In this document: in pieces, positions 2,762-26,274 of the stretch
Numbering within the stretch: position 1 is the stretch's first letter
How the letters are laid out: each line of letters starts with the position of its first letter
Virus genome (UHGV): UHGV-0356621
Strand: one strand, 5' to 3'
From: a virus
DNA: 43,895 nt
Notes under the pieces: generated by a model
What the model was told of the DNA's origin: nothing
What the model saw: only the letters and a program-made list of their open reading frames with translations
Database searches by the model: none
Program-made: the position numbers and the translations under genes

Positions 2762-4269
2762 TAGCGGAGTCCATTGATTTGGTTGGGAGTTAGCAGGCGG
2801 TGCCAGATACGGAAATTGCGAATGTGGTAAACAAACCTTACGGATGTAGTTTGGTTTATATTCCCTATATACGAAACGGATTGCGTGATGTCATTAGGAG
2901 TAACGCTATGAGAGTTTGAATTACCGTTGTAGTAGTTTGATATCCTGCCCCTTTCCGTTGTATGAACGAATACTCCGCTACTACCCTGGAGGCAAGGTAT
3001 ACTAATGTCCGTTGAACTTCGATACGATTTTACTGTGTTGTCGTTAACCCACCTGCAAACAATATCATTGCTTGGGCCTTGTACCTTAACAACTTCAATA
3101 TATCCATCGGAAGCCTGTAAATATTTAGGGAAAAATTCAAATGCCAAAGTTCTGTTGAATAGCGTTGCAAGAGTAGGGTATCCACAGTTTTCTTTCGGGA
3201 TTTGCCAGTAATCAGCAGCTCTTGTAACTGTAGTTGCGGCCGTCGGGATATAGGATGTTGGGAATGGGCTATCTTCTAATTGTGCGCCCCAGGCGTATAA
3301 ACCAGATACGCCATCTCCGGTATAGATTGTTGACACACCATTTGCTAATTGAATGCGAATAACTGTTCTCTGACTCGCTCCGGCTGTGAAAACCATCCAG
3401 ACACGGTATATGCCATTTCCGAAATCATCAAAACCACGATCAACAAATTGAGCACCATGGCCAGGCCCAACCCAGGCACCTGCAGCCGGGTCAAAGAAAA
3501 CGCCTGATGTACTACCAGAAGCAACACGCAGATATAAATTACGCGGGCTGGTGTGAGCTTTTACGAAAACCGAATAACAATAAGTTGTTCCTGCTGTTAA
3601 AATAATATTGCGGTCTTGTGCATAGTGTTCAATGGTAGGGGAGGTACTCTCAATTATAAGCGCCATCGTTTTATCGCCGCGAGGCGAGTCGCCGCTATTA
3701 TTCGTTGTGGTAACGTCTTTCCCTGCGTCCCACTGTTCTGAATATGTATACAGGTTCGTAATCTGATGCTCAATTAAAAGCCCCTCTTTCTCAAAGCGCG
3801 GCTCATTAATTGCCGCCGTCTTCAGCACACCAGATTTATCGATGTACGTCGCCGTCGTTGAGCGAGTGAACGTCATCGACTTAGTGGGCAGAGGGTAACT
3901 TGTGCCGGCCACTGTGATTGTGTCCGCCGGCGCGATCCCGGCCAGCAGGCGAAGGTCATCGGACAGCGGCGCCCAGACATCCGGGAACGGCGCATCAACG
4001 TAAACGGTGGCGGCAGCCGAGTTCGCAGCATCAGCTGCGCTCTGGGCTGCTGCAGCGGCTGAACTGGCTGCAGCCTGCGCCGACTGGCTCGCTGATTGCC
4101 CTATCGCAACTACGTCGGCTTGTAGTCCGGCAAGCGTTTTAGCTTTTTTGCCCGTTCTGGTCGTAACCTCCTTACTGCTGGAATTTACGACCTCATCCAG
4201 AGTCTGCTGGTTATCAGCAAAGTCACGCAAATCGCTGGATGGTACTGAGTTATTTGTATTGTAAGGCAT
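2761..4269 (-). CDS. Tail fibre / host-specificity protein, proximal part
   Basis: 502 aa with an Ala/Ser/Gln-rich N-terminal stretch typical of fibre shafts; sits between baseplate genes and the distal fibre gene; ATG verified with AGGAA RBS. Confidence 0.6.
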   Translation of the reverse strand: MPYNTNNSVPSSDLRDFADNQQTLDEVVNSSSKEVTTRTGKKAKTLAGLQADVVAIGQSASQSAQAAASSAAAAAQSAADAANSAAATVYVDAPFPDVWAPLSDDLRLLAGIAPADTITVAGTSYPLPTKSMTFTRSTTATYIDKSGVLKTAAINEPRFEKEGLLIEHQITNLYTYSEQWDAGKDVTTTNNSGDSPRGDKTMALIIESTSPTIEHYAQDRNIILTAGTTYCYSVFVKAHTSPRNLYLRVASGSTSGVFFDPAAGAWVGPGHGAQFVDRGFDDFGNGIYRVWMVFTAGASQRTVIRIQLANGVSTIYTGDGVSGLYAWGAQLEDSPFPTSYIPTAATTVTRAADYWQIPKENCGYPTLATLFNRTLAFEFFPKYLQASDGYIEVVKVQGPSNDIVCRWVNDNTVKSYRSSTDISIPCLQGSSGVFVHTTERGRISNYYNGNSNSHSVTPNDITQSVSYIGNINQTTSVRFVYHIRNFRIWHRLLTPNQINGLR

Positions 4270-16880: not shown

Positions 16881-17822
16881 TCAGATACCGTCCACGTAGG
16901 ACAGGGTTTCTTTGTACACTGGCTCAACCGCACCGAGCTTGCCGTAGTAGGTCGCAATCTGGTACAGACCGCGATACTGGATAGGAACGCTCTGCAACGG
17001 CACCAGCGGATAGCGCACGTATTTCTTGTCGTTGGTGTAGGCGACCATACGGTCTTTACCGCCAACCCCGCGCCCTTTCAGCCATTTAACCGCTTTGATT
17101 TCCAGCGGAACGCCGTTCTGGTGGAAAGCGATAGTGTTCACGGCCAGATAGGTCAGCAGCGACTGGTTACCCGCTTCGGAAACCTTACGGCTCGCCAGCA
17201 GTGAATACTGCTCTGGCGGAATGCGCAGATCAGAAGGCACGACGGAATAACCGGATGCTGCCCAGGCATTCGACAGAATGCTGTTCACGCTATCGAGAAT
17301 CTCGTCGTTGGTGGAGTTCGCCCAGGTCTTCGGCGCATTGTTCAGCGTCACACCGACAAGGTTTGCCAGCCCTTTCAGGCCGAGCGCATCATCGCCAATG
17401 TAAACCTGCTCGTCGTTGTCCATTTGCCATTTGAGCTGCATCCCGTCGTACTTCTGGGTATCAATCGGGCGACCTACCTGCTGAGCTGCTGCCAGCTCTA
17501 CAACGGTCCAGCCCAGTTCCATGCCCCAGAGGTTCAGCGGATTGCCGTCTTTGCCGATATCAACATTCACGCCAGCAATAGCAGTGGAGTCTTTGCCTAC
17601 CCAGTTTTTACCGTTCGGATTTGCGCCAGTACCAGCAGCGCCAAAACTGGTGTTAGTCCAGCTGGAAATGTCATCTGCGATAGAAACGTCTTCACGCAGC
17701 TGAATATCGCGGGTCCAGGTGTAACCCACCAGCGGCAGGTTCAGCGTCTGGTCGAGTCGCTCCAGCTCCCCGATGAGAAAGGCACCAGAGCTATCAACGG
17801 TTGCCTGATCAAAAGTAATCAT
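16881..17822 (-). CDS. Major capsid protein
   Basis: 313 aa, the largest head ORF, flanked by scaffold-like and decoration-like genes; ATG verified. Confidence 0.65.
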   Translation of the reverse strand: MITFDQATVDSSGAFLIGELERLDQTLNLPLVGYTWTRDIQLREDVSIADDISSWTNTSFGAAGTGANPNGKNWVGKDSTAIAGVNVDIGKDGNPLNLWGMELGWTVVELAAAQQVGRPIDTQKYDGMQLKWQMDNDEQVYIGDDALGLKGLANLVGVTLNNAPKTWANSTNDEILDSVNSILSNAWAASGYSVVPSDLRIPPEQYSLLASRKVSEAGNQSLLTYLAVNTIAFHQNGVPLEIKAVKWLKGRGVGGKDRMVAYTNDKKYVRYPLVPLQSVPIQYRGLYQIATYYGKLGAVEPVYKETLSYVDGI

Positions 17823-17833
17823 TCGTCTGTTCC

Positions 17834-18337
17834 TTAAATCTTCCAGGAGATTTCTGCATTGCCGTTAGCGTCACCGGCCCCTGTGAATTCGGCGTTGGTC
17901 AGCGCCACGTTTTTGCCACTGACGGACGTGGACATGAAGCCGCCCAGCGGCACTTTGATGGATACATCAGTGGAGACGACAACGTATACCGGGTCGCCTT
18001 TTTTGATGGTGCTGGCATCAAAATCAGAACCGAGATTAACGGTCATGTAGCCACGCTTCATGGCGTCACCCGGGAAGTTCTTATCCGTCCCCACCTGGCG
18101 AACCATGTCTGGCTGCGATGTGGTCGGATACGGACGAACGTAGATCCCCTTCACCTTGTCGGCGGTGTCACCGTCCGCCAGCGGCACGAAAAAGCCGTCA
18201 GCATCATATTTGCCAGCCAGACCATAGGCAGCGAAGGCGTTAGCGGATTTAAGGATCACCGGTTCGACGGTTAAGTCCTGCGGGCGAGAGATAGCCCCGG
18301 CAATGCCAACAGGCATCCGGTACAGATATGCAGTCAT
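17834..18337 (-). CDS. Putative head decoration / minor capsid protein
   Basis: 167 aa immediately upstream of the major capsid gene. Confidence 0.4.
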   Translation of the reverse strand: MTAYLYRMPVGIAGAISRPQDLTVEPVILKSANAFAAYGLAGKYDADGFFVPLADGDTADKVKGIYVRPYPTTSQPDMVRQVGTDKNFPGDAMKRGYMTVNLGSDFDASTIKKGDPVYVVVSTDVSIKVPLGGFMSTSVSGKNVALTNAEFTGAGDANGNAEISWKI

Positions 18338-18341
18338 TGGA

Positions 18342-19574
18342 TTATCCTTTGCGGTTAGACCAGAAGTCGGCGTTTTGTTTGTTCAGGGAAGCGATGCTGG
18401 TCATGCCCATATTTGGACGTTGTGCATCGCCCGTGGTGCTGCGGGTGTTTCGCCCTTTGGCAATCTCTGACACGGCGTTAAACGCCATATCTACCGATTG
18501 CTTGGGCAATTTGCGGATATCCGCATCACCGACAACCTGGCGAACCAGTGTTTTGTCAGCGGCGGACAGCACATCACGTTTGAACGCGGTCGGTTTCACC
18601 TTACGGCTCAGATCGATACCCGGAACGATAACTTCGGCACGATAAGCAGCGTCACCGGTAATCGTGGTTTCCTCTTCGTCGTCCTCACCGTCGCCGGTAG
18701 GGTCTTTGTTATCTTTGCCGTCAGGCTTATCGTCGTTATCGCCCGTTGCAGTACCTTCCAGCTTAGCCAGCAGGGCTTTGAGCAAGGTTTTGATATCGTC
18801 CTCGCCGTCGCCGGTTGGCTCTCCGCCCATTTCCGGCTTTTTGTCCGGCAATGGTTGCTGCGGTGAAAGGTTAATGTTGAGGTTAACGCCGCTCGGCAGA
18901 TCCACTTCGTCACCCGTTACCGCCGCTGGCGCAGAGTCCAGCAGTTCGTTCATGGTGTCAGCATCACCCGTTTTGATGGCCGTGCGCATGCGGGTCCACC
19001 AGCTTTTCTTTTGATTTGCCATTGTGTCTCTGTCTCCAATTGCACAACGATTTCCGGCTCTGCCTTTAGGGACAAGAGCCACATGGTTTCCGGTAATATC
19101 GACCTGCTCGGCTTTTCCGGGTTCGGTCTGCTTGTACTCAGCGTCATAGCCGCACGACACTTCGCGCAGACCATCTTCGATAAGCTGAATGGCGCTTTCG
19201 TCTTTGACGATAAGATCAGCCAGCATCAAATCAGACTGGTCACCAGTCCCGCGCCGCACGTTCTGAAGATGCCCGACAGCAAGCTCTTTCCAGTTCTCGG
19301 GATTTACCAGCCGCACATTCCCGTTTTCATCTTCAGGATGCAGGATCGTGATGCTCATCCCTTCGAATGAGGCGAGCGTGGCCGGATGGAATACCTGCTC
19401 AGGAGAGCGCGTTACGACTATCTCACCGAGCTTGTCGGGTTTGAGGTTTGGCAGATCGGCAGCGCCGTAGAGCTGTTTACCCGTTCGACCTATCGGCACG
19501 TCTTTGCACAGCAGCGAGCCGTCAGCCAGCTGATAACGGGTTTCCCCCAGCCGGGTATTGAAAAAATATTTCAT
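18342..19574 (-). CDS. Putative capsid scaffolding / prohead protease protein
   Basis: 410 aa with an acidic low-complexity central region (GDGEDD, DNDDKPDGKDNKD) typical of scaffolds; between the head morphogenesis and capsid genes. Confidence 0.45.
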   Translation of the reverse strand: MKYFFNTRLGETRYQLADGSLLCKDVPIGRTGKQLYGAADLPNLKPDKLGEIVVTRSPEQVFHPATLASFEGMSITILHPEDENGNVRLVNPENWKELAVGHLQNVRRGTGDQSDLMLADLIVKDESAIQLIEDGLREVSCGYDAEYKQTEPGKAEQVDITGNHVALVPKGRAGNRCAIGDRDTMANQKKSWWTRMRTAIKTGDADTMNELLDSAPAAVTGDEVDLPSGVNLNINLSPQQPLPDKKPEMGGEPTGDGEDDIKTLLKALLAKLEGTATGDNDDKPDGKDNKDPTGDGEDDEEETTITGDAAYRAEVIVPGIDLSRKVKPTAFKRDVLSAADKTLVRQVVGDADIRKLPKQSVDMAFNAVSEIAKGRNTRSTTGDAQRPNMGMTSIASLNKQNADFWSNRKG

Positions 19575-19588
19575 GGTTTACCTGCGAT

Positions 19589-20362
19589 TCAGGCGAGATA
19601 AGAATGAGGGTTGGGGAAGACGATTTCTTTGTAACAGCGGCAGTTCGGGAGCTCGCCAGCGTGACCGGTCATGCCGTCAAGCGTTGGAGGTCGGCCCCAT
19701 TCGACAAACTTCCCTTCCATCTCTCGATGAGAATGCCGGACGTCGCCATCTTCGACTGTACGCCAGATATAACCATTCGAGCCGATTGACAGCGCACGCG
19801 CCTGATCCAGCGCGCCGGTTGCGCGTCCAAGCTCGGTACGGGCAATAAGGTTCGCTCGTGAGCGTGACACGTCACCGGAAGCAGCTATCTCTTTCGCGAA
19901 TGGCTCAGCGCGGCCACCAGTTACTACAGCCTCGATGGCCTTGTTCTGAATGTCATACACCCGATCGGCGGCCTCAAGAGGCAGAGATTTGATGTACTTA
20001 ATTTGCTCGGCGACGATGGATTTCATCACCTGGCCTACCGGGGCGCGGTCGACCATGTTGCGTAGTTCTGCGCTGATGTTCCGACTGTGCTGACGCCACT
20101 GCTTTTCATTCTGGCGCGCAATGTCGGCGGTGAAGCTCTCAGCAACCTTAGTCGCCCAGGGGGTGATGATTTCGCTGTAGCGCTCCAGCGCATCCATTAT
20201 TTCGGTGACGCTATCGTTTGAACCATCGTAGCGCCCATTTACGATATCCCCGACCGCCCGCGCTATCTGCCGTAGGCTCGTTCGATATCGGATCTCCGCC
20301 TGTCGGCTCTGGCGGTTTGTCGCCAAGTTCGCCGATGCCTGGCGGCGCTTCGTCTTCGGCAT
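19589..20362 (-). CDS. Head morphogenesis protein (Mu F / SPP1 gp7-like minor head protein)
   Basis: 257 aa following the portal, as in Mu gpF; ATG at 20362 with GAGGA RBS; overlaps the portal ORF end by about 150 bp. Confidence 0.55.
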   Translation of the reverse strand: MPKTKRRQASANLATNRQSRQAEIRYRTSLRQIARAVGDIVNGRYDGSNDSVTEIMDALERYSEIITPWATKVAESFTADIARQNEKQWRQHSRNISAELRNMVDRAPVGQVMKSIVAEQIKYIKSLPLEAADRVYDIQNKAIEAVVTGGRAEPFAKEIAASGDVSRSRANLIARTELGRATGALDQARALSIGSNGYIWRTVEDGDVRHSHREMEGKFVEWGRPPTLDGMTGHAGELPNCRCYKEIVFPNPHSYLA

Positions 20363-21680
20363 TCTCGATATCCTCGTCGGTAATGGATGCCCCGATACCG
20401 GTGACGTCAGAGTTTTCGCGCAGGTCGGTCATCGCCGCCTTACGCGTCATCAATCCGTCGCCCAGCGCGGTGCTGATCGCGTTGGTGGTGTTTACGGCCA
20501 CCGTTGAGCGGTCAACGTCAGACATTTGCCATAGCGGGTTAAACTCAAACGTGAAATCGTCCGGCAGCGGCTTACCGAGTTCCGAGCGGTGCATAATGTC
20601 CAGTATCCGGCGCATCGGCAGCCGTAAGCGGCGCTCCTGCAATGAGCTCACCCGGTCGTAATAGTTGGCGAGGTCTGCGTCACCAGTAGAGAAGCCTTTC
20701 GGGGATTGACCGAACAGGCGCACCAGCGGGATACCAACGGCACCGCTGATCTGCTCAGCGAACTGCGAAAGAATGTCATCCAGACCGCTGAAGCTGTACT
20801 GGTGGGTTTCGAACTTATCCCGCGAGTCCATGAGCGTCATACCTTCATTGCTCTGGAACTGGCGGATCAGGTCGATGTTCTTCAGCAGCGCCTCGAACGC
20901 CGGGCCGCCAAGCGCGATAAGCTCGCGCAGCTTCTCCACGCTGTAGGTGCGCAGATGCGCTTTGTAGACCAGCTGCGCCGCGCCGACAGTGGCGCTGTCG
21001 AACGCAGTAAGCCGATCCCAGATACGCTCTACAACCGACATTCCCCATTCGTTTTCGGTCATCTTCTGCTGGAATGGCAGCGTCACCCCGTCGAAGCGAA
21101 TCAGGCGGCTGTGATGGATGCGCCAGGCCGGGATGCCCGTTGCAGTGGTCACCACGTCGTAAAACTCAGGTTTGCCGAGATCTGGCCCCATCTCTTTAAT
21201 GCGGCGGGTCAGGACCGGGTTAATCATCCAGCGGTCGAGCGGGAGAATGCCCTTAAACTTGCCTTCTCCAATGGTTTCGAGCCGCAACGGGGTCATTGGT
21301 GCCTGCCCCTCAATCATGATGAAGCCGACCGCGCCGCCGTAGAGACGCGACCATTTCAGCACGTCGTTCAGCGCATCCCAGATCTGCAACTCATCCAGCT
21401 GCGCTTCGAGGGTGCCACGGCCTTTCGCGTCAATCTCCGAAGTGATGCGAATGCCTTTCCGGGTCATATCGTCCGGGATGGCGTCGACCGCTTCGCCAAT
21501 AACCCACGATCCGCGATATGACCATTCCACCAGCATGCGGTTGCGGCTGGTGAAGTTCGCCCGGTAGGTTGATGCTGAATGCTGGTTAGGCGTCTGCATC
21601 CCCACGCGGGCGACAAAGTTCTCATAGCCATCAGCGGTGGCCTGCGCCGTTCGCTGAGAGGCTTGCTTGTTTCGTGCCAT
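20211..21680 (-). CDS. Portal protein
   Basis: About 490 aa immediately downstream of the large terminase with an ATGA overlap; GGGAGG RBS before the ATG at 21680 (track start 21707 is TTG). Confidence 0.75.
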   Translation of the reverse strand: MARNKQASQRTAQATADGYENFVARVGMQTPNQHSASTYRANFTSRNRMLVEWSYRGSWVIGEAVDAIPDDMTRKGIRITSEIDAKGRGTLEAQLDELQIWDALNDVLKWSRLYGGAVGFIMIEGQAPMTPLRLETIGEGKFKGILPLDRWMINPVLTRRIKEMGPDLGKPEFYDVVTTATGIPAWRIHHSRLIRFDGVTLPFQQKMTENEWGMSVVERIWDRLTAFDSATVGAAQLVYKAHLRTYSVEKLRELIALGGPAFEALLKNIDLIRQFQSNEGMTLMDSRDKFETHQYSFSGLDDILSQFAEQISGAVGIPLVRLFGQSPKGFSTGDADLANYYDRVSSLQERRLRLPMRRILDIMHRSELGKPLPDDFTFEFNPLWQMSDVDRSTVAVNTTNAISTALGDGLMTRKAAMTDLRENSDVTGIGASITDEDIENAEDEAPPGIGELGDKPPEPTGGDPISNEPTADSAGGRGYRKWALRWFKR

Positions 21681-23122
21681 CAGGCTTGCCTCCCGAGCAA
21701 TTCCCAAATATCCATTGTTGTATCGGTCGGCGCGAACGCCATTATGAAAGCGTCGGCAATGTTAGGTGAGGGGATATCGCGCTTAGCCAAATCTTTCTTG
21801 CTTTCAACCATAACCCTACCGTTACGATCAAAGTCTCGGTGCGGGGTCGTCAGCTCAAGCTTTAGTTTCTCCAGGTGCGGGCACGATGAATCGATACTTA
21901 TCAACTCATCAACAGGATATTCCTCTCCATTTTTCACCGCGTTGAACGTATTACGAAAGCGATCAGCTACCAGCCACCATGCCTGGGCTTTCAGATTGGC
22001 AAAGAAGTCTTTATTCGGAATGCCGTTATATTCAGAATCTGGCTCGTTCACACCAGCGCCAGCATTGAAGCGTTGATAATTAACTGGTCGTGAATAAGGA
22101 TTTTCACGTCGTCTGTCTTCGTTAATTTCCGAGAATTTAGCACCAGCAGAAGCGCCAACACCAATGGAGTCATAAACGATATCAGCACTTCTCTCTGTGG
22201 CTGCCTGATATGCCCGCTGGCAGCTTTTAAGAAGCTCGTCTTCTTTTGCCTTCCATTCATCAGCCCAATACACAACGGAGCCATGACGATAAACATTGGA
22301 GCACTTATCCGCACCGCTATCGGCAACGTCGAAGCCTATTCGCTTTCGTCCGTTTGGCTCAAAACCAAGCACCTTATGGGCATCTATTGCAGCCTCAATC
22401 CACGAAAGTTTAATAATTGCCGCGTCATCATCAGATTCGGGAACCCCCATATAAACGTGGTCAAACCCCTCCGGATCACGACGCTTTGCAGCCGAGATAA
22501 CCTTAAGCATGGTGTCTGAGAGGAATGGGTTTTCGTCGTAATTGATTTTTCTCACCAACGTATCTTCTGGTGGATCAACAACGAAATTACGCCATACAAA
22601 GTCAGTCACCAGACCAGGGTTAAAAATAAACCAGCATTCAGATCCGCTTTTACGAATGGTTGGTTCCAGTATCTTCCACTGGTATTCCGTTAGTGCATGG
22701 GCTTCTTCAAGCCACAAAACGCTGATACCTTCCAGGGATTTAATTTCTTCGATATTGCGCCATAAACCGTAAAACACGAATTCTGAGCCAGTGACCCGGT
22801 TGATAATTTTATTATTCAGAATTCGGAAGCGATGCCGCAGCCCAAACCGTTCAATCTGTATTTTGAGCAGGGTATAAACCGACTCTTCGATTTTGTTCTG
22901 AATTTGACGTGCGCAACAGAAACGCAGGTTGTATTTATTTGCCAGAAAGACAGCAAACCCAGCAGCATCCCATGACTTTGACGATGAGCGCCCACCAAAA
23001 AGTACTTTATTTCGAGCCTGTGTCGTCCAGAAGTTCCTTAGAGCCGGATTCAGGGTCGGTTTGGATGTCAGAGTAGAAGTCATTAAGGTCACGATCTCCA
23101 TTACCGTCATCAACGCCAGCAT
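21680..23122 (-). CDS. terL: Terminase large subunit
   Basis: Walker A GGRSSSKS near the N-terminus, nuclease-type acidic residues towards the C-terminus, about 480 aa; several candidate ATGs (23122, 23110, 23101, 23083). Confidence 0.85.
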   Translation of the reverse strand: MLALMTVMEIVTLMTSTLTSKPTLNPALRNFWTTQARNKVLFGGRSSSKSWDAAGFAVFLANKYNLRFCCARQIQNKIEESVYTLLKIQIERFGLRHRFRILNNKIINRVTGSEFVFYGLWRNIEEIKSLEGISVLWLEEAHALTEYQWKILEPTIRKSGSECWFIFNPGLVTDFVWRNFVVDPPEDTLVRKINYDENPFLSDTMLKVISAAKRRDPEGFDHVYMGVPESDDDAAIIKLSWIEAAIDAHKVLGFEPNGRKRIGFDVADSGADKCSNVYRHGSVVYWADEWKAKEDELLKSCQRAYQAATERSADIVYDSIGVGASAGAKFSEINEDRRRENPYSRPVNYQRFNAGAGVNEPDSEYNGIPNKDFFANLKAQAWWLVADRFRNTFNAVKNGEEYPVDELISIDSSCPHLEKLKLELTTPHRDFDRNGRVMVESKKDLAKRDIPSPNIADAFIMAFAPTDTTMDIWELLGRQA

Positions 23123-23762
23123 CACGACGAAGGCGATCCGCTTCCAGAGACACTTTGTCAGTGGAGGCGAGCCGATGCTCTATAGATGCCTTTGTGAATT
23201 CCAGCGACTCAATGCGGGCCGTGTTACGGTGCATGGCCTTTTCAGCAGAGGAAATCAGCGAGTGGAGTTCCTTCGCTTTGTCATCATCGGCCAGCTCCAG
23301 CTCAGCCTGCCAGCGCCCGATATTCTCCGCCGCCGTCAGATTCGCCGCGCGCAGCCAGAACAACTCATCGTCGAGCGTGAGCAGCTTCGCGTCTTCGGTG
23401 ATTGCGTCAGAGAGCAGCATCCTGCGACCGTAGCCGCCGTGCTTCAATGCGTTCTGATTTCCGGGTCTGGAATTATAATGAGCGCGTTTCGTTTCTGGTG
23501 AGTTTGATGGTTTTGCGACTTCGCAGTTATCCACTAAGCCCGCTGGTGGCTTACTCTTTGCCACTTTCTCCTTTTGCGAATTCGCAGTTTTATTCGCACT
23601 TTTCTTTTGCGAATTCGCACTACCATTCGCAATTTTGATATAGCGCTTTGCAGTCGAGTAATTCAGTCCCTGCGCTTCGCACCATTCTTTGGGGGAAATG
23701 CCGGTTTTGGCATGTTCGGACAGGAACCGTTGCTGAAGCTCGCCCCAGTCCGGCTTTGCCAT
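23007..23762 (-). CDS. terS: Terminase small subunit
   Basis: N-terminal HTH (KEWCEAQGLNYSTAKRYI), central NQNALKHGGYG motif seen in small terminase subunits, sits directly upstream of terL; AGAGGAAA RBS. Confidence 0.6.
   Translation of the reverse strand: MAKPDWGELQQRFLSEHAKTGISPKEWCEAQGLNYSTAKRYIKIANGSANSQKKSANKTANSQKEKVAKSKPPAGLVDNCEVAKPSNSPETKRAHYNSRPGNQNALKHGGYGRRMLLSDAITEDAKLLTLDDELFWLRAANLTAAENIGRWQAELELADDDKAKELHSLISSAEKAMHRNTARIESLEFTKASIEHRLASTDKVSLEADRLRRDAGVDDGNGDRDLNDFYSDIQTDPESGSKELLDDTGSK
23565..23640. repeat. Short direct repeats TTGCGAATTCGCA (x2) plus ATTCGCA (x2) inside the 5' part of terS
   Basis: Read directly from the sequence; encodes the repetitive ANSQKKSANKTANSQ segment. 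Confidence 0.7.
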
Positions 23763-26199: not shown

Positions 26200-26274
26200 T
26201 GGCGGGACAGGAAGGATTCGAACCTTCGACCATTCGGTTAACAGCCGAACGCACAACCGCTGTGCTTCTGACCC
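26200..26274 (-). tRNA. tRNA-like gene, putative tRNA-Asn (anticodon GUU), 75 nt with encoded CCA
   Basis: Minus-strand cloverleaf by eye: acceptor GGGTCAG/CTGTCCC (one T:T mismatch), D stem GCAC/GTGC, anticodon stem TTCGG/CCGAA with loop CTGTTAA, T arm GAAGG-TTCGAAT-CCTTC, discriminator G, CCA. Position 8 is A rather than the usual U. Confidence 0.55.

Follow-up and report, generated by a model that had tools for sequence, protein, structure and literature searches.

The viral genome UHGV-0356621 was analysed as a single stretch of 43,895 nucleotides (nt), hereafter the window, in which the head genes lie on the minus strand in the order large terminase (TerL), portal, MuF-like protein, DUF2213 protein, cement protein and major capsid protein (Table 1). 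The gene directly 3' of the portal gene, here called F, encodes a MuF or SPP1 gp7-like head morphogenesis protein (minor capsid), and its first 152 nt are also the last 152 nt of the portal open reading frame (ORF), read in the +1 frame relative to the portal. A preliminary description had placed an overlap of about 150 base pairs (bp) at 20211-20362, which proved exact, and had offered as possible readings that the overlap is real, that the product is frameshifted or fused, or that an indel error lies near the portal 3' end. The comparisons given here point to the first of these. The two genes very probably form a genuine, evolutionarily fixed, co-directional dual-coding overlap at +1, with the portal and a full-length F protein of 257 amino acids both drawing on the same 152 nt.

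The identity of the two proteins is consistent with their position. The portal aligns with positions 7-355 of the 357 in the PF06381 profile (protein residues 64-411) and matches the dodecameric portal structures of Pam3 (8hds, E=1.8e-35) and E217 gp19 (8fvh, E=5.7e-13); past residue ~451, its tail has no match in solved portals. The Phage_Mu_F domain of F, at residues 137-243, scores 66.7 bits against a gathering cut-off of 29.6, and no solved structure matched F at E<=0.1. Portal translation most likely begins at ATG 21680, from which relatives are annotated and which has one base in common with the TerL stop (TGATG). At its other junctions the head module is tightly packed, with 1 nt shared in one case and 14, 4 and 11 nt separating the genes in the rest, which makes the 152-nt overlap an outlier.

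The overlap is present in many genera besides Escherichia coli. A 2.1-kilobase (kb) stretch spanning portal and F aligns in one piece and without any gap to nine phage records (84-96% identity), among them Citrobacter phage Omnitron, Salmonella phage SEN34 (Brunovirus), four E. coli phages and Hafnia phage yong1, and a five-way alignment has zero indels with both frames open throughout all sequences. The same stretch is matched in prophages of 382 of 5426 complete E. coli genomes (~7%), each of the 12 matches listed consisting of a single aligned piece. In IMG/VR, each of the 73 alignable contigs (49 distinct sequences) retains the ATG and keeps the F frame open, and its portal frame stops at the same codon or an adjacent one. 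The homologue alignment proposed in the preliminary description thus recovered the same overlap in phages, prophages and viral contigs alike. It had also been suggested that such sharing would make the overlap ordinary; this holds in that the overlap is no artefact, but not further, as selection acts on both frames of the shared bases, beyond what a trivial overlap would show.

The architecture also persists across greater divergence. About 72 of 80 loci from different bacterial species share it, with portal identity down to ~50%, F identity down to 46% and F at +1 throughout. Both frames stay open across these diverged homologues, and overlap lengths, measured at each locus to the first ATG of F, differ by multiples of 3 only. 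The overlap is 134-218 nt in most Enterobacterales loci, and 164-167 nt in Cupriavidus and Ralstonia, whereas Alkanindiges, Oxalobacter and Chitiniphilus share ~47-92 nt. Three Yersinia loci carry a GTG at the aligned start, with their first ATG more downstream. The exceptions are an Apirhabdus locus with a frameshift in F (L016) and two Arsenophonus loci with stops in the portal tail (L037 and L052), probably decaying prophages in symbiont genomes. Two loci could not be placed by our script, one lacking a portal match (L030) and one in which no ATG was found (L060). Two Rhizobiales loci (L080 and L082) encode a far more distant portal, and there the portal/F junction is a canonical ATGA.

A truncated form of the locus also occurs. 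E. coli BL21 and strain G5, among others, retain just the first ~37% of the portal and F stretch, and the NCBI Prokaryotic Genome Annotation Pipeline (PGAP) names the DUF1073 portal fragment in these two strains 'anti-CBASS protein Acb1 family protein'. Full-length portal homologues in UniRef are named likewise ('Anti-CBASS protein Acb1-like N-...'). The Acb1 naming looks questionable for a portal.

For F, the openness of the reading frame across the overlap is by itself uninformative. With the portal given, the F frame was open by chance in 77% of simulated trials, and its openness was accordingly discarded as evidence. Because of this, the evidence for F was taken from conservation at the protein level. 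F residues 21-51 (QAEIRYRTSLRQIARAVGDIVNGRYDGSNDS) are among the best conserved parts of F in homologues at 60-75% identity and are still recognisable at 46-50% identity, and conservation of the N-terminal 55 residues as a whole extends to homologues at 46-60% identity. Homologues from Arsenophonus, Providencia, Xenorhabdus and Pantoea are among those that keep residues 21-51. In L080 and L082, where the genes merely abut, F begins with a basic leader of 24-30 residues followed by ARKxExxYxxxLRKIA, as in the overlapping relatives. As these abutting genes encode the same segment, the N-terminal region belongs to F regardless of the overlap.

The pattern of nucleotide diversity agrees with this for part B of the overlap (Table 1). 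Taken over F residues 21-50, diversity at the three F codon positions is 0.12/0.17/0.39, a periodicity of the F type, and third positions of the portal frame, which elsewhere have a diversity of 0.54-0.55, reach just 0.17 here. The portal codons GAT (68/68), CGA (68/68) and TTC (66/66) are invariant. In part A, diversity by codon position is 0.39/0.47/0.45 in the F frame and 0.40/0.32/0.51 in the portal frame, a weak periodicity of the portal type; an acidic, proline-containing portal linker and a basic F leader, each fast-evolving, are predicted to be read there from the same bases. Taken together, the substitution patterns indicate that the F frame is under purifying selection.

The portal frame was assessed by holding the F protein fixed and resampling F codons by local usage. 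It stayed open across the overlap in 2.6% of these trials, while it is open in all intact relatives. Since a resampled portal frame is so seldom open and the frame is nevertheless open in ~72 of 80 loci and in 73 of 73 contigs, the overlap exceeds chance. Synonymous sites in F are constrained in the same region: at conserved F residues, third-position heterozygosity is 0.264 in the overlap and rises to 0.604 in the remainder of the gene (Mann-Whitney p=4.8e-6), and four of ten F-synonymous sites are frozen within the overlap versus none of 65 elsewhere. For selection that the other frame cannot explain, the p values are 4.8e-6 (F frame) and 0.003 (portal frame).

The choice of codons in F can be read from the portal residues that they permit. 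Tyr45 is TAC in 66 of 66 sequences, and TAT would give a portal TGA. Asp46 is GAT in 64/66, as required for portal TGG (W486), and Gly47, although four-fold degenerate, is GGT in 64/66, as required for portal TTC (F487). Ile33 is encoded by the rare ATA in all 65 sequences, which portal AGC (S473) requires. At F codon 32 the amino acid varies (A/Q/K/R/E/G) but the final base is always G, as needed for portal GAT (D472), and the final base of F codon 44 is restricted to those giving L, I or V at portal residue 484. The result is two invariant islands in an otherwise variable portal tail, namely D472-S473 (68/68 and 67/68) and L/I/V484-R485-W486-F487, in which the four positions are kept in 68, 68, 66 and 66 of 68 sequences. 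A second clade achieves something similar with another F sequence. In Cupriavidus and Ralstonia, with 64-67% G+C, F has T-ending codons in AAT GGC TTT CCG CCT GGC GAT, which give portal Q-W-L-S-A-W-R-S, and the W-x3-W spacing of the portal is retained despite the different F sequence. These constraints indicate that the portal frame is also under purifying selection.

The signals for starting F lie inside the portal ORF. The good ATG and ribosome-binding site noted at 20362 in the preliminary description were borne out: a GAGGA stands 8 nt upstream of the ATG. Both signals are encoded by a conserved portal motif, I-T-D-E-D-I-x-[N/D]-A, in which [A/G]AT GCN supplies the ATG. In 58 distinct start contexts the aligned column holds ATG 50 times, GTG twice and TTG once (53/58), and 51 of these contexts have a Shine-Dalgarno-like 4-5-mer, mostly GAGGA at 8 nt; among 66 distinct sequences codon 1 is ATG in 56 and GTG in three. 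Photorhabdus copies are without the aligned ATG and have an alternative ATG five codons upstream, arising from GAT GAA. We favour ATG 20362 as the likely start of F on these grounds.

Public annotations place the start further downstream. PGAP chooses the TTG at codon 13 or an ATG at codon 14 (products of 245 or 244 residues), and as even these starts leave 110-116 nt shared, the overlap is already in RefSeq annotation. The records of SEN34 and yong1 begin F 55 codons late, at Met56, and that of phage vB_EcoM-606R2 begins it 81 codons late (L001, L003 and L002, respectively; positions 2845-3090), so that the conserved N-terminal segment is lost from all three protein records.

That F truly starts downstream, at TTG 20326 (245 residues, 116-nt overlap), at ATG 20197 (202 residues, no overlap) or later, so that the overlap is shorter or absent, is the most serious of the rival explanations and is nonetheless unlikely. 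Besides the public annotations, it is favoured by the finding that long co-directional overlaps in prokaryotic annotations are usually mispredicted starts (PMC2478687), and by weak conservation of F residues 1-20. However, F residues 21-55 are among the best conserved and are present in relatives without an overlap, and codon 1 is ATG or GTG in 59 of 66 sequences with GAGGA at 8 nt. Of 66 sequences, just 15 have TTG or ATG at codon 13, an indel-prone spot, and 27 have a gap there; no good Shine-Dalgarno sequence accompanies this codon, and starting at it would still leave 116 nt of overlap. ATG 20197 is ATT in vB_EcoM-606R2 and encodes Met in only 35 of 66 distinct sequences, and is most likely an internal Met codon rather than a start. 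A different objection is that only F is functional and the last ~50 portal residues are a tolerated read-through tail of no function. The low-confidence coil predicted for the tail, the high variability of portal residues 442-471 and the ending of distant portals 15-30 residues after a PPP motif are all compatible with such a tail, yet an open portal frame expected in 2.6% of trials given F is retained in ~72 loci and ends opposite the same F codon in them, the frozen F-synonymous sites fall precisely at portal D-S and R-W-F, and W-x3-W is retained in a second clade of high G+C despite its different F sequence. We consider a functionless tail improbable.

The fused product considered in the preliminary description would require a programmed +1 ribosomal frameshift, with MuF tethered to the portal as part of one fusion protein. 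F lies at +1 to the portal throughout, MuF proteins bind portals (PMC5576092) and four fused portal-MuF ORFs of 655-697 residues are found in the protein database (P0122, P0124, P0129 and P0132). The four switch frame at four different positions, though. Each is a singleton, and automatic assemblies are the source of three; one switch is a deletion of 41 codons flanked by GAYATCG repeats, and all are probably indels or assembly errors. Codon tables revealed no invariant shift-prone motif at any fixed position, and the folding of 20300-20440 gave no significant structure that could stimulate a shift (z=-1.2; 22 of 200 shuffles fold equally well). A shift at the portal stop itself, such as the AAA-TGA of SEN34-type ends, was rejected because the ends vary among relatives (LRWFKR*, LRWFK*, LRWF* and LRWFTGQR*). 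Moreover, the F N-terminal segment, absent from most such fusions, is conserved, and F has its own conserved Shine-Dalgarno sequence and ATG. Programmed frameshifting is thus very improbable here. As a separate observation, in-frame portal-MuF fusions arise easily from the overlap, as the four database ORFs show. The last of the readings offered earlier, a sequencing or assembly indel, is excluded because homologues carry the same overlap gaplessly. Some copies are indeed broken, by the F frameshift in L016 and the portal-tail stops in L037 and L052, but the gapless alignment to independent phage isolates at 84-96% identity and the same two frames in hundreds of E. coli prophages and viral contigs make it scarcely credible that an indel or pseudogene decay in a prophage explains the portal 3' end at this locus.

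Certain points weigh against a dual-coding overlap of the full 152 nt. Conservation is poor over F residues 1-20, whose basic character might in part simply reflect the +1 reading of acidic portal codons. PGAP prefers the start at codon 13 or 14. Describing the portal end as a 'disordered tail' and the F end as an 'N-terminal helix' is weak, as the structural models behind both are of low confidence: the AlphaFold2 model of the portal has a predicted local distance difference test score (pLDDT) of 57.4, with tail residues 444-489 as low-confidence coil, and that of F (pLDDT 52.8) is of low confidence and too poor for use. Finally, the sequences compared are phylogenetically related, and the counts given above are not independent events.

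If the overlap is dual-coding as favoured here, one late mRNA would be read in two ways. Ribosomes translating the portal would continue to the TAG at its end, giving a portal with a C-terminal tail of ~50 residues made up of an acidic, proline-rich linker followed by the D-S and L-R-W-F motifs. Other ribosomes would bind the internal GAGGA and initiate at ATG 20362 inside the portal ORF, producing the 257-residue MuF/gp7-like protein. Since the F start lies 150 nt upstream of the portal stop, termination-reinitiation is impossible, and initiation at F would presumably be independent and internal. Portal-translating ribosomes might periodically occlude the initiation site, which would hold F at a low level compared with the 12-mer portal. 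Between portal and F there is neither a promoter-like site nor a terminator on the same strand; the terminator-like hits fell on the opposite strand and were no more than chance would give. RNA structure hiding the F ribosome-binding site, as a means of coupling F to portal translation, was dropped on the folding result given above. The portal tail may be flexible and internal to the capsid, with a short anchor motif, which would be compatible with the low-confidence coil of the model.

The overlap may have arisen by overprinting. Because the abutting-gene relatives retain both the F leader and the conserved segment, the F 5' region was likely ancestral, with the portal tail growing over it. 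Under this scenario, an abutting pair would have been the starting point; the portal frame would then have been extended over the F 5' region, and the F start would have come to lie inside the portal D-E-D-I motif. Distant portals end 15-30 residues past the PPP motif, and overlaps of intermediate length occur in Betaproteobacteria and hosts of the Acinetobacter group. A more speculative extension, which we regard as doubtful, is that the two overlapping segments are functional partners. The portal tail and its L-R-W-F anchor would recruit or position MuF, possibly via the MuF N-terminal segment, the overlap would lock the matching segments together genetically, and internal initiation would set a portal:MuF ratio of ~12 : 1-2. 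In a weaker variant, occasional +1 shifts may give a tethered portal-MuF fusion subunit.

Table 1. Features of the portal/F overlap and of the surrounding region in the window.
Feature	Position	Strand	Remarks
Overlap of portal and F, 152 nt (probably dual-coding)	20211..20362	minus	portal residues 440-489 and stop; F residues 1-51
Overlap part A	20303..20359	minus	F basic leader, residues 2-20 PKTKRRQASANLATNRQSR, over portal acidic/Pro-rich linker AEDEAPPGIGELGDKPPEPT
Overlap part B	20231..20302	minus	F residues 21-44 QAEIRYRTSLRQIARAVGDIVNGR over portal residues 460-483, including invariant D472-S473 (20267-20262)
Portal C-terminal motif L484-R485-W486-F487 (CTA CGA TGG TTC)	20220..20231	minus	over F Y45-D46-G47-S48 (TAC GAT GGT TCA)
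Portal stop TAG	20211..20213	minus	same codon or one earlier in 73/73 viral contigs
Putative Shine-Dalgarno sequence GAGGA	20371..20375	minus	portal codons GAC-GAG-GAT (D-E-D); 8 nt upstream of ATG
Favoured F start ATG	20360..20362	minus	portal codons AAT-GCC (N-A)
TTG, F codon 13	20324..20326	minus	NCBI PGAP start, 245-residue product; weaker alternative
Downstream in-frame ATG (F Met56)	20195..20197	minus	F start in SEN34 and yong1 records
Portal ORF	21707..20211	minus	PF06381 (Phage_portal_3 / DUF1073), E=1.5e-104
Portal gene, likely extent	20211..21680	minus	489 residues from ATG 21680
F gene, MuF / SPP1 gp7-like head morphogenesis (minor capsid)	19589..20362	minus	257 residues if started at ATG 20362; PF04233, E=3.8e-18
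TerL (large terminase)	23125..21680	minus	PF04466
DUF2213 protein	19574..18342	minus	PF09979
Cement protein	18337..17834	minus	PF23982 / PF22758
Major capsid protein	17822..16881	minus	PF09950
Small-terminase-like ORF	23762..23007	minus	shares 23007-23125 with the longest TerL ORF
tRNA-Asn (GTT)	26200-26274	minus	
ORF opposite portal	20218-20661	plus	147 residues
ORF opposite portal	20706-21521	plus	271 residues

Elsewhere in the window, the small-terminase-like ORF also overlaps the TerL ORF, by 119 nt on the longest ORF or by ~77 nt if TerL starts at 23083, as in the 467-residue PGAP homologue of E. coli ET846. This may be a second long overlap or a question of start codon. A tRNA-Asn gene lies within the phage region, and the two antisense ORFs opposite the portal are probably stop-poor shadow frames.

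For annotation, these results bear on the MuF-like protein, which is truncated by 55-81 residues in SEN34, yong1 and vB_EcoM-606R2 and starts 12-13 codons late in RefSeq, leaving the conserved F N-terminal segment absent or cut in many database entries. For evolution, the locus offers a well-sampled long co-directional overlap with measurable selection in both frames, and its stages, from a 4-nt junction through ~47-90 nt to 134-218 nt, could be used for studying how overprinting grows. For function, two candidate peptides emerge: in the portal, the C-terminal tail with D-S...L-R-W-F, and in MuF, the N-terminal segment.

The portal/F overlap is of unusual length but represents a known type of arrangement, and reveals no new mechanism. 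Short overlaps of 1-4 nt (ATGA or TGATG) occur in phage late operons and serve translational coupling. Portal and F share this operon logic and gene order, and the TerL/portal junction and the portal/F junctions of L080 and L082 are of this type, whereas at the overlap described here F starts far upstream of the portal stop (152 nt). Out-of-frame overprinted genes are known from phiX174 (A/B/K and D/E) and from lambda Rz/Rz1, in which Rz1 is at +1. As in these, one strand is read in two frames for a considerable length, a separate Shine-Dalgarno sequence and start serve the internal gene, and synonymous variation is suppressed. In contrast to them, the portal/F overlap is terminal, a C-terminal tail lying over an N-terminal region without full nesting, and it joins adjacent, unrelated structural genes. 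Unlike the phiX174 genes it occurs not in a tiny genome but in a ~42-kb tailed temperate prophage of the myovirus type. In lambda G/GT and T7 10A/10B, programmed frameshifts at a conserved slippery sequence give fusions that share their N-terminal part with the unshifted product; portal and F resemble these in using two frames at the end of a structural gene and differ from them in having no slippery site and in F having its own start.

Literature searches turned up no account of a portal/MuF overlap, and the Patience phage paper reports other overlaps; nor did they yield proteomic or Ribo-seq data for phages of this group. MuF genes typically come next after the portal gene, and portal binding, at 1-2 copies per capsid, is known for SPP1 Gp7 only (Jamet et al. 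2017, PMC5576092). The order is the same here, with a MuF-domain protein directly after the portal, and by analogy F would be expected to be a low-copy, portal-associated head protein; the portal, however, is of another family (PF06381) than SPP1 gp6, and no overlap is described for SPP1 gp6 and gp7. In a survey of 338 prokaryotic genomes no real co-directional overlap exceeded 60 bp, the longest being 56 bp (2008, PMC2478687), and the portal/F overlap is therefore an exception in length. Like the enterobacterial overlap reported in that survey, it is co-directional and conserved among Enterobacteria, and the ends of both proteins are conserved; unlike it, the portal/F overlap belongs to a mobile prophage module and exceeds it in length about threefold (134-218 nt in Enterobacterales).

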